Part shown: positions 47,608 to 58,111 of the stretch, piece by piece
How positions within the stretch are numbered: the stretch's first letter is position 1
How the letters are laid out: the number at the start of each line of letters is the position of its first letter
Source: an uncultured Candidatus Saccharibacteria bacterium
Lineage (GTDB): Bacteria > Patescibacteriota > Saccharimonadia > Saccharimonadales > JAGQNK01
Assembly (NCBI GenBank): GCA_964636355.1
Contig: CAZWRG010000006.1
Span: 660 to 64,659 of the forward strand
Reading direction: 5' to 3'
DNA length: 64,000 nt
Translations under genes and position numbers: made by a program
Notes under the pieces: model-generated
What the model saw: the letters and a program-made list of their open reading frames with translations, nothing else
What the model was told of the DNA's origin: nothing
Database searches by the model: none

Positions 47608-48120
47608 TTAAAGCGCGGCTTCTAAAGCTGCCCATTCGACGTTGCTGTCGTCTTCTGGAATGTTGACACTGACCTGATCGCCCGGCTTGGCTTTAAAGTA
47701 AGTTACGCTGGCAAGAAGAACTCGAAGATCTTTGCCGTTAACATTAACAAAATAATGACCGTTTTCTTGATTTAAGACTCCAACCACCTGTTTTCTTGGG
47801 ATTGGACCGATTTGCTTGTACATAAACGCGCCGTCATCAGCGATTGTAAGCTTCAAAATGTCACCCTGGACGAGTTTGGATTTGCTAGCGTAGTTAGCTG
47901 GCACTGGATAGGTTTTGCCATCCGATCCGACCATGTTTTGGCCATCAAAAACACCCTCGATAACTTTACCGAGGTTATCCTCAGTGAGCGAGGTTTGGGC
48001 GACTGATGTGTCTTCGCCAACAAGGCTAATTAGCAGCTCTTTGGCTGCCGCAAGACTTGTCTCTGATTCGGCAATCAGTGCCTTTAGTCTTTTGATTTGT
48101 TTATCTGGTACTTCCGCCAT
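47608..48120 (-). CDS. Hypothetical protein (170 aa)
   Basis: Clean ORF. N-terminal coiled coil followed by a beta-rich C-terminus. No family recognised. Confidence 0.5.
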   Translation of the reverse strand: MAEVPDKQIKRLKALIAESETSLAAAKELLISLVGEDTSVAQTSLTEDNLGKVIEGVFDGQNMVGSDGKTYPVPANYASKSKLVQGDILKLTIADDGAFMYKQIGPIPRKQVVGVLNQENGHYFVNVNGKDLRVLLASVTYFKAKPGDQVSVNIPEDDSNVEWAALEAAL

Positions 48121-48276: not shown

Positions 48277-48654
48277 TTAAGCTAGTTCGACTGTAGCGCC
48301 AGCTTCTTCTAAAGCTTTCTTAGCGTTCTCAGCGTCTTCTTTCTTAGCTTTTTCTAGAACTGGCTTTGGTGCGCCGTCTACAACAGCTTTTGCCTCGCCA
48401 AGTCCAAGACCAGTCAAGTCTTTGACAGCCTTAATAACAGCAACTTTCTGAGCACCGGCGTCTTTTAGGATAACGTCGTATTCACTCTTTTCGTCAGCGG
48501 CTGGAGCGTCGCCAGCAGCAGCTGGGCCAGCAACTACAGCAGCGGCTGCAGCTGGTTCAATGCCGTATTCATCTTTTAGGATGGTTTTTAGTTCGTTTAC
48601 TTCTAGAACTGTAAGTTTAGTCAGCTCTTCGGCTAGTTTCTTTACATCTGCCAT
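48277..48654 (-). CDS. rplL: 50S ribosomal protein L7/L12
   Basis: Alanine-rich hinge and C-terminal [24 protein letters not shown]. Confidence 0.95.
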
Positions 48655-48765: not shown

Positions 48766-49290
48766 TTAGGCTGCGGCTTTAGCTTCTACGCCGTCAAGAA
48801 GTGCGTGCAAGTTGCCGGAAAGACCACTTGTTACATCGTTGACAGGTGAAAGCAATGTTGCAACCACTGAAGCGATGAGCTCATTCTTGCTTGGAAGCGC
48901 GGATAGAGCTTTCATTTCTTCAGCGCTGACAAACTTGCCTTCAGCGCTAATGCCACCAACAAACTGAATGGTTGGTTGGTCTTTAGCGAATTCTGCCAAG
49001 ACTTTGGCGGGTGCTACTTCGTCTTGGTTGTTGAATGCGTAGAGCAACATGCCGTTTAGCGCGCTGGTGTCGGCGCTCTTCAGGGTGTCGTTGCCTTGAA
49101 TGGCCTTGATGACCAATCGGTTTTTGACAACCTTTAAAACAGTGCCGTTGTCGCGTCCGCTGCGGCGCAGTGATTGCATCGCTTTTACAGGAGTACCCTG
49201 ATAAGCGGCCACAACAGTCATTTTTGAGTCGGCAAGCAAGCTGCTTACTTCATCGATGACTGCTTGTTTCTTGTCTTTAGTTAGTGCCAT
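48766..49290 (-). CDS. rplJ: 50S ribosomal protein L10
   Basis: 174 aa. KKQAVIDEV...VAAYQG...M..LR pattern. Lies upstream of rplL. Confidence 0.9.
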   Translation of the reverse strand: MALTKDKKQAVIDEVSSLLADSKMTVVAAYQGTPVKAMQSLRRSGRDNGTVLKVVKNRLVIKAIQGNDTLKSADTSALNGMLLYAFNNQDEVAPAKVLAEFAKDQPTIQFVGGISAEGKFVSAEEMKALSALPSKNELIASVVATLLSPVNDVTSGLSGNLHALLDGVEAKAAA

Positions 49291-49494
49291 TTATTGCCCT
49301 TCTTAAGAAATTTGAATTTCAATATCGACCTTATTGAAATTTTATCAATAAAAATTGACCTCCGTTACCAAAGGTCAATATGTGCTCACAAAACGTAAAA
49401 TGTATTGATCTAGCACCTCGGCGACACAATTAAGGATTACTCCAGTCGCTGTCTTTGGTAACAGATGGGAGTTTAGCAAACATTACGGCTAATG
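49291..49494 (-). promoter_or_regulatory. rplJ leader with terminator/antiterminator architecture (L10-leader-like)
   Basis: Terminator TTGACCT/AGGTCAA (49355-49378) followed by TTTTT on the minus strand. Its loop GTTACCAAA (49364-49372) is complementary to TTTGGTAAC (49454-49462) upstream. Confidence 0.5.
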
Positions 49495-49680
49495 TCAATC
49501 GGAGTATATCTCTTCTTGCTCAAAACATGCAGGGGCTGGTGGCTGGGAGCCATCTAATTCCATAGCGGTATTAGCTGATGTAGTCTCTAATCGATCCTGG
49601 GCTATTTCAAGCGCCAATTCGTTAGGTCTTTCAATGCGGCAACTTGGCCTCATTGGCTGACCTTCTGGTGTCCTGATCAT
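49495..49680 (-). CDS. Orphan small protein (61 aa)
   Basis: ATGA overlap with the upstream ORF 49677..50093. No family recognised. Confidence 0.35.
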   Translation of the reverse strand: MIRTPEGQPMRPSCRIERPNELALEIAQDRLETTSANTAMELDGSQPPAPACFEQEEIYSD

Positions 49681-50093
49681 GTCAATAACTCCTGTTGATA
49701 TTCTAATTTAATTTCTTCAGGCAAAATTATTTTACCCAGCACAAAACCTTCCTCAGCTTGACGGATATAGTTGAGCCCACTAACAGGTTCAACTTTGAAT
49801 GCAGACCTAACCACAAACGAAACAGCCTCCGACGGAGTTATGAGTTGGCTTGAATGAAGCGGCCTTACATCAGCCGTATTGTGGTTAGCCAGCCTTAACC
49901 GAAGCCACGGTTTATTGATATGCTGATTTGACTGGCGTGGGTACCAAACTTTCCAGTATGAAAATGGTTTAGCCAGGGGTTGCTCTGTGAGCTGCTGATC
50001 ATTAGTTCCCTGCTCAAAAAGCTCCCACATGGCGTCTCTATCGCTCGCTTCGTAAGATATTGTTGGTGGTGTATCGATTAGCTGCTTAGTCAT
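49677..50093 (-). CDS. Orphan protein (138 aa)
   Basis: Clean ORF in the orphan island. No SD. The ATG lies 6 nt after the terminator U-run. Confidence 0.45.
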   Translation of the reverse strand: MTKQLIDTPPTISYEASDRDAMWELFEQGTNDQQLTEQPLAKPFSYWKVWYPRQSNQHINKPWLRLRLANHNTADVRPLHSSQLITPSEAVSFVVRSAFKVEPVSGLNYIRQAEEGFVLGKIILPEEIKLEYQQELLT

Positions 50094-50098
50094 AGTAT

Positions 50099-50123
50099 TA
50101 AAAAAGACCCGGTTGGCGGGTCT
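50099..50123 (-). terminator. Internal terminator/attenuator within the orphan island
   Basis: AGACCCG (50105-50111) pairs with CGGGTCT (50117-50123). TTTTTT follows on the minus strand. Confidence 0.55.
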
Positions 50124-50149
50124 TTCAGAGATTACTTTACAAATATGTC

Positions 50150-50206
50150 TCAGTCCCGCTGGTGGCGAGTTTCAATAATCTTAATAATAATTGAAGTTAG
50201 AGACAT
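50150..50206 (-). CDS. Candidate micro-ORF (18 aa, MSLTSIIIKIIETRHQRD)
   Basis: AAAGGAGGA lies 9 nt upstream of the ATG at 50206. The stop is about 25 nt before the 50099-50123 terminator. Confidence 0.25.
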   Translation of the reverse strand: MSLTSIIIKIIETRHQRD

Positions 50207-50236
50207 GGTTCTATAATCCTCCTTTAGCGATGTTTG

Positions 50237-50467
50237 TCAAGTGTTTTTTGGGTCACATAGAAGCTCAGAGGTTATTACAACTTCTTTCTGGACCTCTGGC
50301 TGTGATGTATTGCTTTCTGGCGTGCCTATTTGGTCAGTACCGCGGGCGTGGCGAATAACTTCGCCGCCTGATTTTAGTCGTGAGATCTCTGCTCTGGACG
50401 CTCTCCAGGATTCATCGGATATTCCGTCTGGGCGGCTGATGCCAGTTGGTAATGGTTCAAATTCCAT
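50237..50467 (-). CDS. Orphan small protein (76 aa)
   Basis: Starts MEFE.. and contains AEISRL, like its upstream neighbour (MEFD.., AEISRH). This suggests weak paralogy. Confidence 0.4.
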   Translation of the reverse strand: MEFEPLPTGISRPDGISDESWRASRAEISRLKSGGEVIRHARGTDQIGTPESNTSQPEVQKEVVITSELLCDPKNT

Positions 50468-50493
50468 CGTTAATACTCCTTTGTTAATTTAAA

Positions 50494-50742
50494 TTAAGCT
50501 GGCAGGTTAGCCCGAAAATCATCTGTGCGGTGTCTTGATATCTCGGCAGCCTCTGACTGGCTTCCATGACTTACAGATTGTGTAACCTCCTCACCACTCA
50601 TTGACTCAACTATTGCTACTTCAGCAGCCTTACGTGATGTGGCTGATCCGAATAGCGGAACAGCTCGATCAAATCTAACTACATCTGGCGGCTGGACGCC
50701 ACCATCCTTATGACCATTAATCCCATAATCATCAAATTCCAT
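50494..50742 (-). CDS. Orphan small protein (82 aa)
   Basis: AAGAGGAGAG RBS 4 nt upstream of the ATG. First gene behind the structured leader. Confidence 0.4.
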   Translation of the reverse strand: MEFDDYGINGHKDGGVQPPDVVRFDRAVPLFGSATSRKAAEVAIVESMSGEEVTQSVSHGSQSEAAEISRHRTDDFRANLPA

Positions 50743-50890
50743 AAAACTCTCCTCTTAAGTTAAATAAAGACCTCTTGAAGAAGCCTGATTTTGGGGCTGT
50801 GCTAAAGCGATTTACGCTCAGGCTTCAACCATGATGAAGCACAGCCCTGTAAGGCTGAGGAGGAGTTGCTTCATCAAAAAAGTTTTCATG
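50743..50890 (-). promoter_or_regulatory. Structured 5' leader with anti-SD and mutually exclusive helices
   Basis: P1 is 50833-50841/50867-50875, with an inner hairpin at 50842-50846/50853-50857. P2 is 50780-50788/50818-50826. A 9-nt alternative pairing joins 50794-50802 to 50839-50847. CUCCUC in the P1 internal loop is complementary to the GAGGAG SD. Confidence 0.4.
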
Positions 50891-50896
50891 ACAATT

Positions 50897-50947
50897 AAGA
50901 TAGACTATTTTTATTGACTTGACAAGAACTTTTTTGACGAGTAAAGT
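50897..50947. promoter_or_regulatory. Back-to-back divergent sigma70-like promoters sharing one -35 region
   Basis: Plus strand: TTGACA (50919-50924), 17 nt, TAAAGT (50942-50947). Minus strand: TTGTCA (50925-50920), 17 nt, TATCTT (50902-50897). Confidence 0.45.
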
Positions 50948-50953
50948 CTATGT

Positions 50954-51129
50954 TCGTGAGATCATTATTCCAGATTATTACTATCAAGCACCTCTGCCGT
51001 CCATACGGTTTCGTGTTTGTGATGGCAAAATAACTCTGGAATCCGAGTCTTCACACCAATAAATTAAATCGAGAAACATCAAAAAACCGGATTCCAAAAC
51101 AAGGAAGCCGGTTTTTTTAAGGAAAAATT
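50954..51129 (+). promoter_or_regulatory. Riboswitch-like leader (P1 / antiterminator / terminator) upstream of 51130..51567
   Basis: P1 is ATTCCAGA (50967-50974) with TCTGGAAT (51035-51042). The antiterminator is GGAATCCG (51038-51045) with CGGATTCC (51088-51095). The terminator spans 51085-51118 and ends in TTTTTTT, just before the RBS. Confidence 0.45.
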
Positions 51130-51567
51130 ATGTCTGTAGAAGCAATCGAAGGTTTAACTAGTAGTGATCTCAGCGGCGTTGAGCTGGCTATAGCGCGTGA
51201 AGATTTCTGCTGCGCGGTTAGATCTGGCGCTACATTAGAACACAAAGAAAGAGCACTTGATGAGTTTGTTAAGGCGCTTGGCGGAGCCTTCTTTGGCCAA
51301 ACAAGGATTGTGGAGGTTGAAACTGTCGATAGAGCGGCGGAATTGTTAGAAGTTCAGCTTGGTTGTTTGGCAACTGCCGGTAGTTTGTCTTCGGCCGCTG
51401 AAAGTACCCCAGGTCAAATACCTGAATTTAATCTCGAATTAATTTCAGAACATATTGAAGCTAACATGAGCTTAGGTGCGACGTTGCCAGCATCTGTTGA
51501 TCTTGCGGTTCGCAACATTGCCGAGCCTTATATCTATACCCCAGATACATCAACAGCTGCAGTTTAA
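51130..51567 (+). CDS. Orphan acidic protein (145 aa)
   Basis: AAGGAAAAATT-ATG RBS. Only long ORF in this interval. Convergent with tmk-thyX. Confidence 0.45.
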   Translation: MSVEAIEGLTSSDLSGVELAIAREDFCCAVRSGATLEHKERALDEFVKALGGAFFGQTRIVEVETVDRAAELLEVQLGCLATAGSLSSAAESTPGQIPEFNLELISEHIEANMSLGATLPASVDLAVRNIAEPYIYTPDTSTAAV

Positions 51568-51568
51568 T

Positions 51569-53917
51569 CTAAGATTTTTTGTCGAGTTGTTGGAGCTTAA
51601 ACTGAGTGGCCCGCTCGGCCGCCAAACGGGTTAGCTCCGGATCTTCGCCCTGGTTGACAAACTTCATGGCTTCTCCGAGCATCGGGTGAACCTCAGATAG
51701 TTTTTTATGCATTTCAAGCACTAGTTTTCGATATCCTGGATGGCCTTGAGGGCTGGTTCTAAGCTCATGAAGATGAAACGCCGCGCGGGCATTGTATGTG
51801 ACTTTCCAGCGCATTCGGTGGCCAAGCAAGGTGGCGTACTGAGCTTCGTACTCGTAACCGCGTGATTGAAGCTTGGAATAGAGCTCGGCTGATACATCAA
51901 AGCATTTTTCAAACAGATCTGATAAACCGGCTTCTTCTACCAAATCGGGAATTTCATAGCCATATCTTGGGGTTAGAGCTTGCCATTCCAGATCGTCAAC
52001 CATTCTATGCCGTTGCAGGTCACGGAAAATTCCATAATCACAAATTAAGTCCCAGCTGTAATGGGCGATTTCCAGTGCTCGGCCCGGGCGATGACGGCGA
52101 TTTAATCTTTCGCCGATATAAGCTTGGAAAACCTCTTGTTTTTGCTTGATTGGCCAGTCGGACACCTCATTTTGAATCTCTTGAAGCGACAAATTACTGG
52201 ATTCATAAAGCATGTGCGGAACCAGGTCGAGTTCGTTTCGCGGCCAAACATTCCTAAGAGCCACAGCCGTCTGATCAGTGCTGTGAATATCTGGTAAATA
52301 TTTTTCAGTTAGTTTTTTGATCTGTTGTTTAGTGTTTGCCAGATAGGCAGTCGTCGCGCCGCCGCGGTCTGGCTTGTCAGCTCTTTCTAGGAAGGTTGGA
52401 ATAATCTTCCGGGCTTCGGCAAGCAACGCATCGCCAGTTTGCTGTGCCTCCAGACTTTCGCTGGCTCTCAGCCGCATAATCATGCTTTCGAGCGCTTGAC
52501 CGCTGGCAAAAATACCAACCGTAGATTTTGTCGCCACTGGCAAGACCGGTCGTATAGCATCACAAGCCTGAGCTCTAATAGCACTTCGCCAAGCACCGTC
52601 TTGTTCTGATTTAGGAGTTGAAGAGTTGCTAGTTAGATAGGCCGTAAGCTCATGAACCATCGCTGAATAGCCCTCAAAAATTGTGTCCATGGCGTGGTTG
52701 TAGAGTTTTGTAGTAGGAGCATCAAAGTTCTTGGGCGTGAAATATTTATATTTCCCGGACTCGTCTTTTTGATCAAAATAAATATAGCGAGTTGATTGTT
52801 CCAAATAGGAAGCCAGCCGCCCCCATTCAAGTTGTTTGGTGAGCAAATTGCTGGCGTTTTCAACCACCAAATGCTGTCCAACCAATTGCTGTACTGAATC
52901 ATCGCCGTAAGCAGTAATTACTCTTTGCAGCAAACCTTCGTCCTTGCCGGCTGAAGCAGCAAATTCATCCAGGATAGTGATTCTCATGTCATCACCGCGC
53001 CGGCTAAGGCGAGCCATGGCTGCAGCGATTGTAAGAGTGCTCATTTTATCTGTAAAAGCATAAACATCGTTGTCTGAATTTGTGACTGCGGCGTCTAGGA
53101 ATGCATTGCCCTCGTCAGTTATTTCCCAGCCCTCGTCAGTTTTTTTAACAAATGGATTTGTTGTATCACGCTTCACAAAGTTTCCTTTCTGGGGCTGGTC
53201 TTTAGTATTGATCTTGGGCAGTAGTGGCTGCAGCGATTTCCATAAATGATCAGAAATTTGCTCGATACTCATTAACTTTTTATCACGAACACAATCAATT
53301 CGCATGAAATCTTTTGGGAATAATTGACACAAATCATCATAAACTTCGACTGATTTTTTGAGGTGATTAAGGTCTGCTTCGTGAATATCACGCTTTTTAT
53401 CGGTGTAGCTGCGCGCATCTTTTTGATCGACCAGCTGTTGAGCAATCTCGGCCGGCACCCGTAGAACAATGCTTTTATCTGGCCGGGGGATTTTAAGCAT
53501 TTCAAACTCTAAATTATCAAGCCAAATAAAATACCCGCGGCGTTCTTCTGGATGATTAAACTTTGTTCCCTGATGGGCCATGTTTGAGCCAGTAAATCGA
53601 TTGGCCAAAACAACTTTACCTGCCTCCAATGCTTGCCGGATTTTAGGCGCTGCTTCAAATCTATCAAGCGCGTAAAAAAGAGATCCGGTATACGGCCCAA
53701 CCTCATCGGCAGTTCCGTATTTGCCATTTAAATATTGTTTTACAAAATAGCTTGAGTCATTTTCGTATTGCGGAAAGTCAAAAAGCTCAACCTCATGACC
53801 GGCGTCAACTAGCCTCTCGGCCAATTTTTGAAACTGAGTTCCCTTGCCGGACCCATCAGTGCCTTCTATGACAATAAATGCTCCCTGTTTGGGCTGCGAT
53901 TTCTTGCGACCGATCAT
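51569..53917 (-). CDS. Fusion protein: thymidylate kinase (N-terminal) plus tandem ThyX-like FAD-dependent thymidylate synthase domains
   Basis: FIVIEGTDGSGKGTQ P-loop in residues 1 to about 215. A first ThyX-like half has a degenerate motif (WGRLASYLEQSTRY). A second half has the canonical RHRM...TPRY. Confidence 0.8.
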   Translation of the reverse strand: MIGRKKSQPKQGAFIVIEGTDGSGKGTQFQKLAERLVDAGHEVELFDFPQYENDSSYFVKQYLNGKYGTADEVGPYTGSLFYALDRFEAAPKIRQALEAGKVVLANRFTGSNMAHQGTKFNHPEERRGYFIWLDNLEFEMLKIPRPDKSIVLRVPAEIAQQLVDQKDARSYTDKKRDIHEADLNHLKKSVEVYDDLCQLFPKDFMRIDCVRDKKLMSIEQISDHLWKSLQPLLPKINTKDQPQKGNFVKRDTTNPFVKKTDEGWEITDEGNAFLDAAVTNSDNDVYAFTDKMSTLTIAAAMARLSRRGDDMRITILDEFAASAGKDEGLLQRVITAYGDDSVQQLVGQHLVVENASNLLTKQLEWGRLASYLEQSTRYIYFDQKDESGKYKYFTPKNFDAPTTKLYNHAMDTIFEGYSAMVHELTAYLTSNSSTPKSEQDGAWRSAIRAQACDAIRPVLPVATKSTVGIFASGQALESMIMRLRASESLEAQQTGDALLAEARKIIPTFLERADKPDRGGATTAYLANTKQQIKKLTEKYLPDIHSTDQTAVALRNVWPRNELDLVPHMLYESSNLSLQEIQNEVSDWPIKQKQEVFQAYIGERLNRRHRPGRALEIAHYSWDLICDYGIFRDLQRHRMVDDLEWQALTPRYGYEIPDLVEEAGLSDLFEKCFDVSAELYSKLQSRGYEYEAQYATLLGHRMRWKVTYNARAAFHLHELRTSPQGHPGYRKLVLEMHKKLSEVHPMLGEAMKFVNQGEDPELTRLAAERATQFKLQQLDKKS

Positions 53918-54627
53918 AACGCTTTTAAACCTTTAATTTCCTCAGGGAGCCGACGGCTGTCTTTGTAGGCTTTGGGCAGCATTTGGTCGGGCGTCCAGTT
54001 TTTAATAAGTTCATCCAGGTCAGTGCCGGATTGATATTTACCGCTAAAACCTTGATCGCGACCAGCGCCGTAGTTGCCATCAACTTCGCCGGTTTCATGA
54101 AAAATTATCTGAGCGATTCGTTCGCCGACTGGCAACAACACCGTTTCATGCTCATTTAAATTGTAAATTTCGAGCGTTAGGCGGTTAATGTAACCTGGAT
54201 CAATCCAACCGGCGTCAAAACAGACAGCTACGCCATTTCTTCCCCAACTGGAGCGAGATTTTACCTCTGCAGCGCCGGGCGGTTTAATGCCAAAAAATTC
54301 ATGGGTATGGGCCAGGATGCGCTCGCCTGGCTTTAATGGAATTACTGGGTGATCTTCGGGGATGCCTTCGAGTAACTGAACGCCATTTGCATCGCACCAT
54401 TCTTTGTGCGGTACAGCAGTGTGAACCTCTGCAAAATAGCGGTCAACATCTGCTTTTGAAAAAGGGTTGTAAACATAACCGCGGTTGGCTTGCCCAGTTC
54501 GGTAAAAATAATGACCCAAGGTGACGTCCAAACTGGCGTGGCTGACTTGTTTTGGATAAAACGGTCGGCAAACAATGTGCTCTTCTTTTAGCGCATTGAG
54601 TATTTGAGTGTTGCTGTAAACTCCCAC
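53914..54627 (-). CDS. dcd: dCTP deaminase (dUTPase superfamily)
   Basis: SHASLDVTLG and AGWIDPGYINRLTLEIYN motifs. 4-nt overlap with the tmk-thyX start. Confidence 0.8.
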   Translation of the reverse strand: MGVYSNTQILNALKEEHIVCRPFYPKQVSHASLDVTLGHYFYRTGQANRGYVYNPFSKADVDRYFAEVHTAVPHKEWCDANGVQLLEGIPEDHPVIPLKPGERILAHTHEFFGIKPPGAAEVKSRSSWGRNGVAVCFDAGWIDPGYINRLTLEIYNLNEHETVLLPVGERIAQIIFHETGEVDGNYGAGRDQGFSGKYQSGTDLDELIKNWTPDQMLPKAYKDSRRLPEEIKGLKAL

Positions 54628-54712: not shown

Positions 54713-55141
54713 TTAGCGGGTAAATAATAAGAATGGTTTTCGGGAGTAAACAATTAGTTTTTTGCGTTTGCCGTCGGTTTTTATTAAGTGAGTGTGCTGA
54801 TGCGTGATGGTCTTGGTGACTGATTGTGGCGGTCTGGCATAAACACTGTAGCCCCGCTCCTCATATTTGCCGATGTAATCCAAAAACTCTTTAGCGGCCG
54901 CGACCGGGAGCTTACTGATGCTATCGATGTGATCTTTGGGTACTAGCATGACTTGGTGCTGAACCGCCTGTTCGTCCCAATATGAATAGTGAAAACGATT
55001 AGTAATAATTTTGAAATACTGGCCTTCTTCGATAAACTCGTCGTGTCCAGGAGTGATTTTGCAGAAATTACAAACGTCCGATGGCTGACGCTTTTTTAAT
55101 TTCCGGTATTGTTTTTCTTCTCTGCGTTTTCTGGTCGTCAT
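54713..55141 (-). CDS. HIT family protein
   Basis: Histidine triad HQHTHLI. ATG at 55141 lies 6 nt after TATAAT (leaderless type). The longer track ORF would overlap rplA and its terminator. Confidence 0.7.
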   Translation of the reverse strand: MTTRKRREEKQYRKLKKRQPSDVCNFCKITPGHDEFIEEGQYFKIITNRFHYSYWDEQAVQHQVMLVPKDHIDSISKLPVAAAKEFLDYIGKYEERGYSVYARPPQSVTKTITHQHTHLIKTDGKRKKLIVYSRKPFLLFTR

Positions 55142-55167
55142 TTTTATATTATACGCCCCTTTGCAAT

Positions 55168-55205
55168 TAAAAAAGCAGCCCTTAGAGGGTAATCTAAGGG
55201 CTGCT
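55168..55205 (-). terminator. Strong rho-independent terminator after rplA
   Basis: A 12-bp stem, AGCAGCCCTTAG (55174-55185) with CTAAGGGCTGCT (55194-55205). TTTTTT follows on the minus strand. Confidence 0.8.
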
Positions 55206-55211
55206 TTATAT

Positions 55212-56204
55212 TTAGTTTGCTTCGCTGGTGTCGATGGTGATGCTTGGTCCCATGGTGGTGGTTGCAAAAATCGATTTTACATAAGCACCCTTAACAGAAG
55301 CCGGCTTGTTGGCCTTAACGCTGGCAAGTAAGGTCTTGGCGTTTTGAGTGAGTTTATCAGCGCCAAAACTAACTTTACCGATTCCGACGTGAATGATTCC
55401 GGTGCTGTCAACGCGGTATTCTACACGGCCTGCTTTAGCTTCGCTCACAGCCTTGGTGACGTCATTAGAAACAGTGCCGCTCTTTGGATTTGGCATCAGT
55501 CCTTTTGGTCCCAATACACGGGCGTATTTCCCAAGCTTTGGCATCATAGCCGGTGTAGCGATCAAGACATCAAAATCAATTGTGCCTTTGTCGAGTTGCT
55601 GCAGGAATTCATCACTGGCTGCAATATCGGCTCCAGCTTTTTTAGCTTTTGTAACGTCCTCGTTGTCTGCAAAAACAGCCACTCGAACGGTTTTTCCAGT
55701 GCCAGCTGGCAGTACGATTGTGTCGCGGATGTTTTGATCAGCGTGACGCGGATCGACTCCCAGGCGGATGTGCAGCTCAACAGTTGCGTCAAATTTTGAA
55801 GGACTGGTTTTAGCAGCTAGCTCTAATGCTTGAGATAGATTATAAGCCTTATCTTTTTCGATTTGTTCAGCTAGTTTACGGTAATTCTTGCCTTTTCGCT
55901 CAAAAACGCTGCGTGGTGGATTTTGCTTTTGCTTAGGCTTGTCGTCTTTTGTATCCTCTGCTTTGGCAGCTTTGCGCTCTTCTTTGGCCTGTTTTTCTTC
56001 GGCTTCAGCCATTGCTTTGGCACTCCGCTTGCCAGCCTTCGCAAGTGGCTTGTCGGCCACAGCCTCTTGGTCTTGACTGGTCACTGGAGACTGGTCACTG
56101 GAGACTGCTGAAATTGCTTGTTCAATTTCAGCAATCGTATTCTTTTCTGATACGTCCAGGCCAAGTTTCTTAGCCTCTTCTAATAATTCTGCTTTCTTTG
56201 CCAT
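55212..56204 (-). CDS. rplA: 50S ribosomal protein L1 with a roughly 100-aa N-terminal extension
   Basis: The canonical L1 body starts near GKNYRKLAEQI... (FDATVELHIRLGVDPRHADQ, GPKGLMPNPK). The extension is a helix-extended-helix-like ELLEEAKKLGLDVSEKNTIAEIEQAI followed by a K/A/E-rich tract. Confidence 0.9.
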   Translation of the reverse strand: MAKKAELLEEAKKLGLDVSEKNTIAEIEQAISAVSSDQSPVTSQDQEAVADKPLAKAGKRSAKAMAEAEEKQAKEERKAAKAEDTKDDKPKQKQNPPRSVFERKGKNYRKLAEQIEKDKAYNLSQALELAAKTSPSKFDATVELHIRLGVDPRHADQNIRDTIVLPAGTGKTVRVAVFADNEDVTKAKKAGADIAASDEFLQQLDKGTIDFDVLIATPAMMPKLGKYARVLGPKGLMPNPKSGTVSNDVTKAVSEAKAGRVEYRVDSTGIIHVGIGKVSFGADKLTQNAKTLLASVKANKPASVKGAYVKSIFATTTMGPSITIDTSEAN

Positions 56205-56682: not shown

Positions 56683-57111
56683 TTACCCCTCGATTTCTAC
56701 ACCCATGCTGCGGGCGGTACCGGCGACCATCTTTTTGACGGCTGGAATATCATCAGTGTTCATATCATTTGCCTTGGTTTCGGCAATTTCTGTCAGCTGG
56801 GCATCGCTTAATTTTTTACTTATTTTTTCAGTGTTTGGCTTGCCGGAACCTTTTTGAATACCCAGAGCCTTGCGGATCAGATCATCAGTTGGCGTACCAA
56901 CAACGCGCCAGCTCATGCTGCGGTCATCATAAATTGTAATGTGTACGGTTAGATCTTGACCCATGCGATCACTGGTCTCGGAGTTGAACGGTTGGATAAA
57001 ATCCATCATGTTCACACCGTACTGACCGAGGGTGCTACCAACTGGTGGCGCTGCACTGGCTTGACCACCTTTAATTTTCATTTTTAGATTTGCTTTGACG
57101 ACTTTCGCCAT
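56683..57111 (-). CDS. rplK: 50S ribosomal protein L11
   Basis: KMKIKGGQASAAPPVGSTLGQYGVNMMDF is the classical L11 N-terminal domain. Confidence 0.95.
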   Translation of the reverse strand: MAKVVKANLKMKIKGGQASAAPPVGSTLGQYGVNMMDFIQPFNSETSDRMGQDLTVHITIYDDRSMSWRVVGTPTDDLIRKALGIQKGSGKPNTEKISKKLSDAQLTEIAETKANDMNTDDIPAVKKMVAGTARSMGVEIEG

Positions 57112-57568: not shown

Positions 57569-58111
57569 TTAAACTCTTTTTACTTGAAGGCTGTCAAGTT
57601 CAACTGGAGTTTCACGGCCGAACATGTTAACTAGCACTTTTAGTTTGCCTTTTTGGGCGTCAATCTCATTGATTGTGCCATCAAAACCCTTGAATGGTCC
57701 GTCGGTAATGTTTACTACTTCGCCGATATTAAAGTCAATCTTGTGCTTTGGCTCCTCACGGCCCATGCGCTTCATGATTTTTTCCATTTCCTCATCTGAA
57801 ACTGGGGTTGGTTCGGTGCCAGAGCCGACAAAACCAGTAACCGAAGGGGTGTTTCGGACAATATACCAAGCGTCTTCGCCCATCTTCATTTGAACTAGCA
57901 CATAACCTTGGAAAATGCGCTTTTCAACAACTTTTCGTTTGCCGTTTTTGACCTCGATCATTTTTTCTTTTGGCACTAGTACCTGAAAAATCTTGTCTTT
58001 CATATCAAGGCTCTCGGCCCTTTGACGAATACTTTCGGCAACCTTTTCTTCGTAGCCGCTATAAGTGTGAATGGCATACCACTGTTGCTTGGAATCGTAA
58101 TTTTTGCTCAT
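57569..58111 (-). CDS. nusG: Transcription termination/antitermination factor NusG
   Basis: WYAIHTYSGYEEKV (NGN) and GEVVNITDGPFKGFDGTI (KOW). Confidence 0.95.
   Translation of the reverse strand: MSKNYDSKQQWYAIHTYSGYEEKVAESIRQRAESLDMKDKIFQVLVPKEKMIEVKNGKRKVVEKRIFQGYVLVQMKMGEDAWYIVRNTPSVTGFVGSGTEPTPVSDEEMEKIMKRMGREEPKHKIDFNIGEVVNITDGPFKGFDGTINEIDAQKGKLKVLVNMFGRETPVELDSLQVKRV

Follow-up and report, generated by a model that had tools for sequence, protein, structure and literature searches.

In the leu, ilvGMEDA, ilvBN and trp attenuators of enterobacteria, the position of the ribosome on the leader picks the antiterminator or the terminator. A closer likeness to the locus analyzed here is offered by the attenuator of Corynebacterium glutamicum ilvBNC, which encodes the 15-aa leader peptide IlvL (MTIIRLVVVTARRLP; PMC11857589, citing Morbach 2000 and Narunsky 2023). 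As described there, the leader is translated with no ribosome-binding site from a transcript whose first nucleotide lies 1 nt ahead of the start codon, and the attenuator works through three hairpins (PMC11857589). The locus described below lies in a 64-kb window, the whole stretch of DNA that was analyzed, from a Saccharimonadales (CPR) genome, and occupies the gap between the thymidylate genes and rplJ. We consider it likely that this block is a native, lineage-conserved locus with three ribosome-mediated leader-peptide transcription attenuators and replaced cargo. Leucine and isoleucine supply would apparently be sensed by two of the three switches, and the best reading by analogy is that of ilvBNC-type attenuators sensing branched-chain amino acids whose cargo has been replaced. 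The attenuators would here govern small, fast-evolving proteins rather than the amino-acid enzymes governed in relatives.

The gene order nusG-rplKA, dcd-tmk:thyX, gap, L10 leader-rplJL is the norm in this lineage (80 of 80 fetched relatives), and dcd, tmk-thyX and a variable gap of 0.6 to 7.3 kb part rplKA from rplJL in all 69 relatives with both ends readable. An earlier interpretation based on the letters of the window and its open reading frames, hereafter the sequence-only reading, had seen a self-contained island splitting the two ribosomal protein gene pairs and had suggested looking for its absence from relatives with contiguous rplKAJL. The separation is instead the normal state, with a contiguous site in none of the 69 relative loci, where no gap falls below 626 bp. 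The same reading placed the block correctly between the dTTP genes and the rplJ leader: the tmk-thyX fusion, dcd, rplA, rplK, nusG and the L10 leader were all identified as its context. The thyX-rplJ gap measures 2.28 kb in the window against a median of 2.1 kb among relatives and contains three modules of one design, a skeleton that most relatives keep at this position.

Relatives vary in the genes that the gap contains, which would suit the insertion, between rplKA and rplJL, of an accessory or mobile module such as a toxin-antitoxin system, a genetic switch or a defence system. So would the small paired genes, with a stop/start overlap in o138/o61, and the lack of recognizable families that had been noted for the five larger ORFs and is borne out by Pfam, PHROGs and PADLOC, in which nothing matched at E ≤ 1 except for two or three insignificant PHROG matches; a search of 5.8 billion proteins likewise returned essentially no homologs. 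We nevertheless regard an insertion of this kind as highly improbable, because gap and regulatory skeleton alike are conserved here across the order, the GC content (0.40–0.47) resembles that of the flanks, the codon usage of the ORFs is native and matches the rest of the window, and the same slots hold housekeeping amino-acid enzymes in relatives. No direct or inverted repeats flank the block, no phage or plasmid DNA similarity was found for it, it neither contains nor adjoins an integrase or tRNA gene (the closest tRNA gene lies ~18 kb off), and none of its proteins matched a toxin, antitoxin or defence family in PADLOC, Pfam or PHROGs. Of the regulated accessory module envisaged by the sequence-only reading, the regulated unit thus stands, whereas the toxin-antitoxin, defence or accessory island is at odds with the native composition and the lack of a PADLOC match.

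The argument for a native attenuator locus begins with the layout shared by the modules: a sigma-70 promoter, a leader ORF (18–25 codons in the window) with an antiterminator arm at its stop codon, a T-run terminator and a cargo gene (Table 1). Counted over the window and 80 relatives, module 1 is present in 55 loci (54 of the 80 related genomes, always downstream of thyX on the thyX/rplJ strand), module 2 in 27 (26 of them in related genomes) and module 3 in 31 (30 in related genomes). Promoter-like sites are not above chance on the window alone (6, against 7.4 ± 2.9 in shuffles); the promoters are credible because they are conserved across species, with the hexamers that had been proposed on both strands. 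In all three modules, an intrinsic terminator separates the leader ORF from the first cargo gene (−7.5, −13.4 and −13.5 kcal/mol in the window for modules 1, 2 and 3, each followed by a T-run), and the cargo genes start right after the T-run, without a separate promoter. The start codon lies 6–8 nt past the −10 element in the modules of the window and 6–9 nt past it in nearly all copies, a distance that leaves no room for a Shine-Dalgarno sequence. The transcript would start at or next to the leader start codon, and the leader mRNAs are therefore predicted to be leaderless.

Table 1. Features of the block and its low-coordinate edge (window coordinates; minus-strand details are given in the direction of reading).
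Feature	Coordinates	Strand	Details
Module 1 promoter	50897..50925	−	−35 TTGTCA 50925-50920; 17-nt spacer; −10 TATCTT 50902-50897
Leader ORF 1	50818..50889	−	Putatively leaderless; MKTFLMKQLLLSLTGLCFIMVEA, then stop; 23 aa; CTC CTC CTC (three successive Leu codons) 50865-50857; stop TGA 50820-50818, inside arm A
Stem P1	50794..50847	−	GGGCTGTGCT 50847-50838 paired with AGCACAGCCC 50803-50794
Arm A (antiterminator)	50828-50818	−	TTGAAGCCTGA; enclosed by P1 along with a small hairpin
Arm B	50788-50780	−	TCAGGCTTC; complementary to arm A
Module 1 terminator	50759..50786	−	Hairpin 50786-50768; T-rich tail 50767-50759
o82	50494..50742	−	First cargo gene of module 1; Shine-Dalgarno GAGGAG; codon score 0.219
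o76	50237..50467	−	Second cargo gene of module 1; Shine-Dalgarno AAGGAG; codon score 0.177; orphan
Module 2 promoter	50213..50240	−	−35 TTGACA 50240-50235; −10 GATTAT 50218-50213
Leader ORF 2 (the "18 aa" ORF)	50150..50206	−	Putatively leaderless; MSLTSIIIKIIETRHQRD, then stop; 18 aa
Module 2 terminator (internal terminator)	50100..50122	−	GACCCG-CCAAC-CGGGTC + T6; stem 50122-50106; T-run 50105-50100
o138	49677..50093	−	Module 2 cargo; no Shine-Dalgarno sequence; codon score 0.158
o61	49495..49680	−	Overlaps o138 by ATGA; codon score 0.141; orphan; stop TGA 49497-49495 in the −35 of the rplJ promoter
rplJ promoter	49498-49470	−	Low-coordinate edge of the block
L10 leader	49340-49476	−	Rfam RF00557; 59.7 bits (threshold 44); upstream of rplJ
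Module 3 promoter	50919..50947	+	−35 TTGACA 50919-50924; −10 TAAAGT 50942-50947
Leader ORF 3	50956..51033	+	(M)RSLFQIITIKHLCRPYGFVFVMAK, then stop; 25 aa; GTG start 8 nt past −10; small conserved hairpin 50996-51009
Arm A'	51037-51045	+	TGGAATCCG
Module 3 terminator	51087..51118	+	B' CCGGATTCC 51087-51095; C' GGAAGCCGG 51103-51111; T7 51112-51118
o145	51130..51567	+	Module 3 cargo; convergent with tmk-thyX; codon score 0.220

Module 1 is marked by leucine. Across 46 homologous leader peptides, Leu makes up 21.7% of residues against a background of 10.6%, the Leu codons change synonymously while other residues vary, and in one clade runs of Ile/Val replace Leu. A strict promoter pattern was matched in 34 of 57 copies, mostly the higher-scoring ones, with the start codon mostly 6–10 nt past −10, and a strict 27-nt pattern of the module was matched in 114 metagenome contigs with the same neighbours. 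Covariation is seen in the alternative pairings. Stem P1 is 93.8% paired over the 57 copies, with compensatory changes in 6 of 10 pairs, and for A:B the paired share is 89%, with covariation in 6 pairs and values reached by none of 500 shuffles. Taken together, P1 and A:B are 91.5% paired, against 27–43% in slid controls, with double changes in 12 of 20 pairs, values again reached by 0 of 500 shuffles. The competing B:C hairpin has −6 kcal/mol or stronger in 50 of the 57 copies and is followed by a T-run in nearly all; the terminator of the window is weaker than most, and its T-run is interrupted. The median A:B duplex (−19 kcal/mol) is much stronger than the median terminator (−9.5 kcal/mol), so that the untranslated state may read through. 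Further complementarity is offered by GAAGC, which occurs upstream in 28 of 57 copies, and by GCTTC, present in 46 of the 57, and the exact folding pathway of the module is uncertain as a result.

Between genomes with ~70% identity in their Tmk-ThyX proteins, the primary sequence of module 1 is up to 94% identical over 52 nt. Conservation this high, an arrangement compatible with a pseudoknot and the protein-binding L10 leader next door might indicate a riboswitch or protein-binding leader, in which the RNA folds, especially P1 + A:B, bind a metabolite or a protein and the ORFs are incidental. Such a reading is very unlikely, given that the start codon sits at a set distance from −10 and the frame stays open through variable sequence in all three modules, and that Leu and Ile are enriched at the codon level. 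The module RNAs, moreover, matched no Rfam family, leader families included, even at E ≤ 10. Under the attenuator reading, the high conservation would follow from a double constraint, coding plus two alternative pairings.

Module 2 is built around isoleucine, which occupies 5 of the 6 positions of the run IIIKII in the window and 19.6% of residues in 26 homologous leader peptides (background, 7.1%). The codons swap among ATT, ATC and ATA while other residues vary, and the run is the sole part kept in peptides of 13–20 aa. All 26 aligned copies agree, at fixed spacing, in the ATG, in the −35 hexamer TTGACA and in the A and T within −10. The internal terminator predicted by the sequence-only reading is real and parts two sub-units of the minus-strand arm, even though a consensus promoter/terminator scan of the window did not list it; it is kept in 26 relatives despite changing sequence. 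Adjoining the leader stop codon, the segment GCGGGAC is complementary to the 5' arm of the terminator (−13 kcal/mol in the window), a candidate antiterminator that in relatives was judged by eye.

Module 3, on the opposite strand, has a promoter that is kept in 28 aligned relatives, with TGACA and TA...T invariant. A':B' reaches 83% pairing, 6 of its pairs covary, and no shuffle of 500 reached the observed value for 4 of 5 measures; the terminator, which like that of module 2 is kept in the alignment, is 77% paired across copies. The peptide (consensus ..IIAKHICRxYGFVLVMAK) is hydrophobic and conserved as a sequence, not as a codon run, and shows no enrichment of Ile+Leu+Val (26% against a background of 24%). 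The peptide sequence of module 1 (..GLCFSMVEA) is likewise conserved and hydrophobic. Together with a promoter and terminator for each ORF, and with known leader peptides that act in trans, such as peTrpL (PMC7298713), these features would accord with functional small peptides (membrane, type I toxin-like or signalling) followed by plain terminators, although nascent-chain sensors would fit too. Several observations make this quite unlikely. Where the peptides are conserved, their RNA is also paired (in P1, in arm A and in the hairpin within leader ORF 3), the three-way covariation of A, B and C would be needless for a plain terminator, and the cargo genes follow directly after the T-run, with their own Shine-Dalgarno sequence. 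Module-2 peptides retain only the Ile run, and the Ile/Val run of module 1 is kept in the clade in which the frame relative to P1 differs.

The stop codon lies 8–23 nt past the first nucleotide of arm A in 45 of 46 module-1 copies and 4–10 nt ahead of A' in 28 of 29 module-3 copies; these positions fit masking of the arm by the ribosome and support the attenuator reading. Smooth translation of the leader would bring the ribosome to the stop codon, where it would cover A, leaving B to pair with C and transcription to terminate before the cargo. When the amino acid is scarce, the ribosome would stall early at the codon run, A would be free to pair with B, no terminator would form and the cargo would be transcribed. 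We infer both the stalling and its dependence on amino acids from the sequence. Module 1 (Leu-Leu-Leu) would accordingly sense leucine, or Ile/Val in one clade, and control o82-o76; module 2 (IIIKII) would sense isoleucine and control o138-o61; and module 3 would apply the same RNA logic to o145.

The modules resemble the C. glutamicum ilvBNC attenuator, as described in the source cited above, in their short Ile/Val/Leu-rich peptides (for example, MTRTVIIVKVIISSA and MSLTSIIIKIIETRHQRD), in translation without a ribosome-binding site from a transcript beginning at the start codon (here predicted), and in alternating antiterminator and terminator hairpins, with a 5' helix that can cover the start region. 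They differ in belonging to CPR bacteria rather than Actinobacteria, with no sequence or Rfam relationship detected, in numbering three per locus, of which two diverge from −35 elements that overlap, and in cargo: as that source describes it, the ilvBNC attenuator controls branched-chain amino-acid genes, whereas the cargo in the window consists of orphan small proteins. With enterobacterial attenuators, whose mechanism is textbook knowledge, they share regulatory codon runs, the placement of the stop codon and a T-run terminator before the first structural gene (cf. PMC1183508). Enterobacterial leaders, however, have a Shine-Dalgarno-dependent start and a 1:2/2:3/3:4 segment logic, whereas the leaders here are predicted to lack a 5' untranslated region, and module 1 adds the long-range stem P1 around the antiterminator arm, in a pseudoknot-like topology.

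The cargo in relatives belongs to branched-chain amino-acid metabolism. There, the modules precede ilvA, ridA and a leuA-like gene, whose products are, respectively, a threonine ammonia-lyase of the biosynthetic type (TIGR01124, 704 bits), RidA and a protein with a catalytic domain of the LeuA family; leuA-type synthase, ilvA and ridA genes lie behind modules 1 and 2, with ilvA or ridA-ilvA directly after module 2 in two genomes (L059 and L065), and a branched-chain aminotransferase gene adjoins the modules. The view that the layout differs from housekeeping genes finds no support in relatives, in which the same skeleton drives such genes, a situation close to the conserved position with housekeeping homologs that the sequence-only reading itself had named as evidence against it. 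Two points count against the attenuator reading. Saccharibacteria are commonly regarded as amino-acid auxotrophs. In the window, no branched-chain amino-acid pathway gene was found anywhere in the 64 kb, block cargo included, and the classical logic of sensing an amino acid in order to make it is thus not applicable here.

The ORFs of the block (61, 138, 76, 82, 145 and 18 aa) are present as they had been listed, but the 82- and 76-aa proteins, described as weak paralogs, gave no BLASTP alignment even at E ≤ 100. With a weak profile match (E = 0.26) over the C-terminal 60 aa, which end in ...DDFRANLPA, o82 may belong, as a divergent member, to the small ORF1 family, whose proteins end in [FW]xAN[LM][IP][AP] and for which no annotation was found. 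For o138, a single distant homolog was found, P0005 (library search, E = 1.6e-4; 30% pairwise identity, E = 3e-13), which is encoded in the matching slot, between module 2 and the L10 leader with rplJ. The NCBI annotation gives o138 in a 117-aa form starting from M22. o145 returned only itself from the 5.8-billion-protein search, and an iterative local HMM search ties it to genes downstream of module 3 in five relatives (L001, L002, L013, L046 and L051); judged by these matches, it belongs to a family that occupies this position and evolves fast.

No homologs of o82, o76 and o61 were found, for o76 even among syntenic ORFs, confidence is very low in the single-sequence AlphaFold models (pLDDT 35 and 43), o138 is without a Shine-Dalgarno sequence and the module-1 terminator of the window is degenerate. 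The five larger ORFs might on these grounds be decayed remnants, or chance ORFs that followed the loss of ilvA/leuA-type cargo, and the attenuators relics. We think this unlikely, because all five are coding in their own frame only (0.14–0.22 against an off-frame 95th percentile of −0.08), strong Shine-Dalgarno sequences precede o82 and o76, and o138 and o145 have same-slot homologs in other genomes. The window, furthermore, bears no sequence trace of IlvA, RidA, LeuA or IlvE, and relatives that retain ilvA also carry small ORFs in the cargo slots. Replaced cargo under working attenuators remains our preferred reading.

Both arms of the block open with structured leaders, as had been proposed, and diverge from promoters whose −35 hexamers overlap by 5 bp (TTGACAA/TTGTCAA). 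This back-to-back arrangement of modules 1 and 3 recurs in 22 other genomes (23 loci with the window), with the start codons 68–70 nt apart in 12 of the 23. From the shared 5 bp and the conservation of the layout, it is reasonable to infer that RNA polymerase would load at one promoter at a time, excluding the other. The best-described bidirectional promoters have −10 regions that overlap by sequence symmetry, with starts ~18 bp apart. As in those, opposite-strand promoters share DNA here and interference between polymerases would be expected; unlike in those, it is the −35 hexamers that overlap, and the two start codons lie 68–70 nt apart. The block is bounded on its low-coordinate side by the rplJ promoter and the L10 leader. 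Like the leaders of the modules, the L10 leader is structured and lies 5' of its genes in this intergenic region; it regulates rplJL and, being located downstream of the block, stands outside the three modules as an element of its own.

The block under study fills the gap between thyX and rplJ in a Saccharimonadales genome (Candidatus Saccharibacteria, CPR). In every relative, rplA is parted from rplJ by dcd and tmk-thyX and then by this further gap, which spans 626 to 7300 bp (median 2102 bp; 69 loci with both ends) and measures 2279 bp in the window; the adjoining Tmk-ThyX fusion is matched at 66% to 78% identity in 80 Saccharimonadales assemblies. The five larger ORFs and the 18-codon ORF drawn in a sequence-only reading are all present, and the five, described there as lacking a recognizable family, indeed have none in Pfam, PHROG, or PADLOC. 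Their codon usage is native in their own frame only (scores of 0.14 to 0.22; native genes 0.26 ± 0.10, off-frame 95th percentile −0.08), and the GC content of the block (0.40 to 0.47) matches the surroundings. We rejected the explanation of the block as an insertion, and with it any mobile-element character: the gap is present in relatives, GC and codons are native, no direct or inverted repeats bounding the block were found, and comparison with phage and plasmid records gave no similarity. The search for a tRNA gene near the block was likewise negative. Thus, of the regulated accessory island first proposed, the regulated module stands and the island does not, since the block is native and its architecture lineage-conserved.

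Coordinates and sequences of the gene neighborhood and of the three regulatory modules in the window
Feature	Position	Strand	Remarks
nusG	57569-58111	-	
rplK	56683-57111	-	
rplA	55212-56204	-	
184-aa ORF	54713-55267	-	between rplA and dcd
dcd	53914-54627	-	Pfam
tmk-thyX	51569-53917	-	Pfam; 782-aa fusion; block under study next
Module-3 terminator	51087-51118	+	CCGGATTCC / GGAAGCCGG + T7; o145 next
Module-3 arm A'	51037-51045	+	TGGAATCCG
Module-3 leader ORF	GTG 50956; stop 51031-51033	+	(M)RSLFQIITIKHLCRPYGFVFVMAK; 25 codons; GTG 8 nt past -10
Module-3 -35	50919-50924	+	perfect TTGACA; 5-bp overlap with module-1 -35; -10 TAAAGT follows
Module-1 leader ORF	50889-50818	-	MKTFLMKQLLLSLTGLCFIMVEA
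Module-1 stem P1			10 bp; GGGCTGTGCT / AGCACAGCCC
Module-1 segment A			TTGAAGCCTGA; contains or adjoins stop codon
Module-1 segment B			TCAGGCTTCAA
Module-1 segment C			GAAGCCTGA, then T-run
Module-2 -35	50240-50235	-	TTGACA
Module-2 -10	50218-50213	-	GATTAT
Module-2 leader ORF	ATG 50206; stop 50152-50150	-	MSLTSIIIKIIETRHQRD; ATG six nt past -10
L10 leader	49340-49476	-	Rfam RF00557, 59.7 bits
rplJ	48766-49290	-	
rplL	48277-48654	-	

The conserved part of the block is its noncoding skeleton. A tblastn comparison of the five ORFs with the 80 relatives returned nothing except one weak match of o145 (ORFs are named by their length in amino acids), and blastn found a segment of approximately 120 nt (window ~50748-50869, minus strand) in most of the same 80 relatives, with up to 94% identity over 52 nt. 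Iterated nhmmer searches resolved this segment, module 1, into 57 copies at 55 loci (the window and 54 of the 80 relatives), every copy lying on the strand of thyX and rplJ. Together with modules 2 and 3, each again composed of a promoter, a short leader ORF, an antiterminator arm, a terminator, and a cargo gene, it is found in 17 loci, the window counted. Judged from their sequences, the three modules appear to bear every hallmark of ribosome-mediated transcription attenuation, and we consider attenuation the probable explanation of the block.

Module 1 opens with a promoter (-35 TTGTCA/TTGACA, spacer of 16 to 18 nt, -10 of the form TAnnnT), and in most copies matching the strict promoter pattern (34 of 57) the ATG lies 6 to 10 nt past the -10, leaving no room for a Shine-Dalgarno sequence. 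The leader ORF, 26 codons on average, runs into three mutually complementary segments, A, B, and C; the A:B antiterminator and the B:C hairpin are mutually exclusive, B:C with its T-run constitutes an intrinsic terminator, and the next gene, preceded by a Shine-Dalgarno sequence, comes directly afterwards. The 57 copies were aligned with MAFFT, and covariation was assessed against 500 column shuffles and against structures slid by 1 to 3 columns. Stem P1 and A:B are 91.5% paired, with changes on both sides in 12 of 20 pairs; none of the 500 shuffles reached these measures, and the slid structures pair at 27% to 43% only. The B:C hairpin reaches −6 kcal/mol or lower in 50 of 57 copies (median −9.5 kcal/mol), nearly all followed by a T-run, and the A:B duplex is much stronger (median −19.4 kcal/mol). 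Segments A, B, and C change jointly between genomes, for example, as GAAGCCG / CGGCTTC / GAAGCCG or GAAGTCTGA / TCAGACTTC / GAAGTCT.

The module-1 leader peptides contain 21.7% leucine against a background of 10.6%, with a run of leucine codons just 5' of P1 in which CTC, CTT, CTA, and CTG replace one another synonymously. One clade carries isoleucine and valine in place of the leucine run (IIILGL, VIIVLSL); another has its reading frame shifted relative to P1 and still keeps an LVLVIIV run. In 45 of 46 copies, arm A begins 8 to 23 nt before the stop codon, so that a terminating ribosome would cover this arm. P1 itself may act as a pause hairpin or belong to a pseudoknotted antiterminator. About half of the copies carry additional GAAGC and GCTTC segments; a strict five-segment fold incorporating them was discarded because its logic came out inconsistent. 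Two other identities for module 1 were also set aside: a stand-alone small RNA gene (6S or SRP RNA), given the lack of an Rfam match and the conserved ORF inside, and a lipoprotein signal peptide, given that the residues before the cysteine misfit a lipobox. Across the block, Rfam at permissive thresholds yielded the L10 leader as the sole significant match. Two further copies were noted in unusual positions, downstream of rplL, before a 216-aa ORF (L056, 16312-16440; L numbers denote loci of the related genomes), and, in the frame-shifted form, after a leuA-like gene (L066, 16460-16561); evidently, duplication or local relocation of module 1 is possible in this neighborhood.

The first and second small ORFs of the relatives are separated by a constant spacer of approximately 140 to 195 nt, which holds a second unit of the module-1 design, located at 50240-50094 in the window. 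This module 2 unites two elements that the sequence-only reading had listed separately, the 18-codon ORF and an internal terminator, the latter being real (stem 50122-50106, T-run 50105-50100, −13.4 kcal/mol). nhmmer recovered module 2 in 26 related genome loci and in the metagenome contig L081; in the alignment, the spacing is fixed and no copy departs from TTGACA, from the A and T of the -10, or from the ATG. The peptides share little beyond an isoleucine run (MTLTNSIIIKIIAAPDTRVR, MTRTVIIVKVIISSA, MAQTTIIKIIRDSV, MGKQIIIDIITNRTSG, MAQNIIINAIIIIETPITERV), and isoleucine amounts to 19.6% against a background of 7.1%, with ATT, ATC, and ATA interchanging. Judged by eye, GCGGGAC by the stop codon in the window can pair with the 5' arm of the terminator (−13 kcal/mol), and the very 5' end (AUGNCUC) is complementary to a segment with UGAG located at the stop codon, a pairing for which a few compensatory changes can be seen.

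Module 3, found by nhmmer in 30 related genome loci and always opposite thyX, has the corresponding elements A', B', and C': pairing reaches 83% for A':B', where six pairs covary, and 77% for the terminator, and the stop codon precedes A' by 4 to 10 nt in 28 of 29 copies. Its peptide is conserved as a sequence (..IIAKHICRxYGFVLVMAK) and is not enriched in isoleucine, leucine, and valine (26% versus 24%). Module 3 therefore follows the same RNA logic, with an unclear signal.

The four promoter hexamers assigned to the two diverging arms are present in the window. Promoter-like sites are not more frequent in this sequence than in shuffles (6 versus 7.4 ± 2.9), and the credibility of the promoters therefore rests on cross-genome comparison. 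A head-to-head arrangement of modules 1 and 3 occurs in 23 loci, the window among them, and in 12 of these the start codons are 68 to 70 nt apart, as expected for two promoter-to-start units of 36 to 37 nt with 5 bp common to their -35 boxes. The module-1 -35 reads TTGTCAA in approximately 25 relatives, the reverse complement of a perfect TTGACAA. That RNA polymerase bound at one promoter would exclude binding at the other is a reasonable inference from the shared -35. In three loci (L046, 11588-11944; L047; L051), module 3 is back to back with module 2 rather than module 1, with start codons approximately 81 to 89 nt apart and a 407-aa gene after module 2.

Under the attenuation model, a ribosome translating the leader to its stop codon would mask arm A, B:C would form, and transcription would end; a ribosome stalled at the leucine run of module 1 or the isoleucine run of module 2 would leave A free to capture B, and with A:B formed, transcription would run on into the cargo. 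Leader-peptide attenuation is a classical mechanism, so the block does not represent a new type of system. Its novelty seems to lie in the clustering of three attenuator units at a single conserved locus in a CPR lineage, the divergence of two of them from overlapping -35 boxes, the apparently leaderless nature of all three, and the combination of regulators conserved throughout an order with an exchanged cargo, which here consists entirely of orphan proteins. The closest experimentally studied system is the ilvBNC attenuator of Corynebacterium glutamicum. According to PMC11857589, which cites Morbach et al. 2000 and Narunsky et al. 2023, its transcript starts one nucleotide before the start codon, its 15-aa leader, MTIIRLVVVTARRLP, is translated in the absence of a ribosome-binding site, and its hairpins are an anti-antiterminator, an antiterminator, and a terminator; PMC3890552 covers leader peptides of leuA, ilvB, and trpE. 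Among the papers searched on Saccharibacteria leader peptides and attenuation, none described these elements.

The recurrent cargo or neighboring genes of the relatives were identified by clustering of gap ORFs, Pfam, and NCBIfam. They include the biosynthetic threonine ammonia-lyase IlvA in 13 loci (TIGR01124, 704 bits versus a cut-off of 411), RidA in 8, a 390- to 427-aa protein consisting of the LeuA-family catalytic domain alone in 8, directly after module 1 (a ninth, L035, has a more divergent HMGL-like ORF there), a branched-chain aminotransferase passing NF005146 in 5, and an M20 peptidase in 10. Directly behind module 2 lie ilvA in L059 and ridA-ilvA in L065. Metagenome contigs served as an independent sample: a scan with a strict 27-nt module-1 pattern retrieved 114 of them, which carry tmk-thyX (56), rplJ (30), IlvA (16), RidA (18), and LeuA-type genes (10) as neighbors; module 2 is present in 16 contigs and module 3 in 13. 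These 114 contigs encode no homolog of the five ORFs of the window. Conversely, tblastn with IlvA, RidA, LeuA-type, IlvE, and M20 proteins found nothing in the 64-kb window, and the idea of decayed enzyme genes was rejected on this basis.

For o145, behind module 3, the only protein found among 5.8 billion was itself; a local iterative profile search grouped it with the genes that follow module 3 in L001, L002, L013, L046, and L051, a group with the motifs G.EL..ARE.. and ..PRAFT.TLLD. The second-module protein o138 likewise found only itself in a word-indexed search of the protein database, and a full HMMER scan of 1.84 billion representatives identified P0005 (144 aa, E 1.6e-4) as the one credible relative; aligned pairwise, the two proteins share 30% identity over 111 aa (E 3e-13). 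Along the P0005 contig come, in order, the tail of a module-1 terminator, ORFs of 155 and 74 aa (the second of the type of ORF1, the family of first genes behind module 1), module 2, P0005, the rplJ promoter, the L10 leader, and rplJ, and the o138 family therefore sits in the isoleucine-attenuator slot. The homology begins at approximately residue 14, favoring the long form of o138 over the 117-aa NCBI call. Two top matches of o138, P0003 and P0004, were treated as spurious, being giant repetitive proteins aligned over 9 to 10 short stretches, and are probably artefacts of repeats and composition; these proteins are approximately 2,000 aa long, with tandem repeats of approximately 90 aa. AlphaFold, run on single sequences, gave no usable model of either o138 (pLDDT 35) or o145 (pLDDT 43).

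The C-terminal 60 residues of o82 align with the loose ORF1 family (..PY[AS]GTEG.., ending in [FW]xAN[LM][IP][AP]; o82 ends in DDFRANLPA), at E = 0.26 only against the family profile, which in a large protein search drew 7 matches, all unannotated. The paralogy suggested for o82 and o76 was not borne out, BLASTP giving no alignment even at E ≤ 100, and o76 and o61 remain orphans, with no homologs found. The C-terminal conservation of the small ORFs is partly a nucleotide effect of promoter conservation, because their TGA stop is often the TGA of the next TTGACA: o61 stops inside the -35 of the rplJ promoter (GAT TGA CA, 49498-49493), and many ORF1 genes stop inside the module-2 -35. Sites of this form (..T TGA CA) were noted in the window (49493-49498 and 50235-50240) and in many other loci, among them L039, L030, L014, L073, and L081 (720-725).

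The window itself shows no cargo in the metabolism of the sensed amino acid, a mismatch that leaves the mechanistic reading unweakened and is the most interesting point. The organism is epibiotic and generally regarded as unable to make its own amino acids. Our best guess is that the five cargo proteins are a response to leucine or isoleucine starvation. More tentatively, and with doubt on our part, the leucine and isoleucine attenuators may have been kept and re-purposed from biosynthesis to small, fast-diversifying starvation-response proteins (o82, o76, o138, o61, o145, and their counterparts in relatives), with the divergent arms mutually exclusive through their shared -35. On this reading, the proteins could secure amino acids by targeting the host cell or the uptake machinery. 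If so, the locus would be a compact "amino-acid hunger" control center in which the regulators are more conserved than what they regulate. If the attenuation model holds, the modules would be the first amino-acid-sensing cis-regulators described in Saccharibacteria, and the model names a gene set whose expression should rise as charging of Leu-tRNA or Ile-tRNA falls. The modules raise the question of how these host-dependent bacteria sense starvation, which is testable because some Saccharibacteria can now be cultivated with their hosts. Their evolution is also unusual, the modules being conserved order-wide and the cargo swapped from ilvA, ridA, and leuA-type enzymes to orphan proteins; for annotation, standard gene calling misses three short genes per genome.

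Several neighboring genes have features of their own. The tmk-thyX fusion is kept in all 80 Saccharimonadales relatives, each time after dcd, and comprises Pfam Thymidylate_kin (residues 17-210) and Thy1, in two stretches from approximately residue 294. The 184-aa ORF (54713-55267, minus strand) belongs to no Pfam or NCBIfam family and, as drawn, shares 56 nt with the 3' end of rplA, so that its true start is probably later; it is present in only approximately 12 of the 80 relatives, and this second gap, from rplA to dcd, is therefore also variable. Ribosomal protein L1 (55212-56204, minus strand) has an N-terminal extension of approximately 100 aa rich in lysine, alanine, and glutamate, the rplA_bact model covering residues 104-328 only. 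Directly after rplL, in the usual place of rpoB, lies a 170-aa protein (47608-48120, minus strand) whose sole family match is a sub-threshold Pfam 5_nucleotid_C (E 0.0024) and which is 76% to 88% identical in nearly all relatives, a conservation exceeding that of RplJ.
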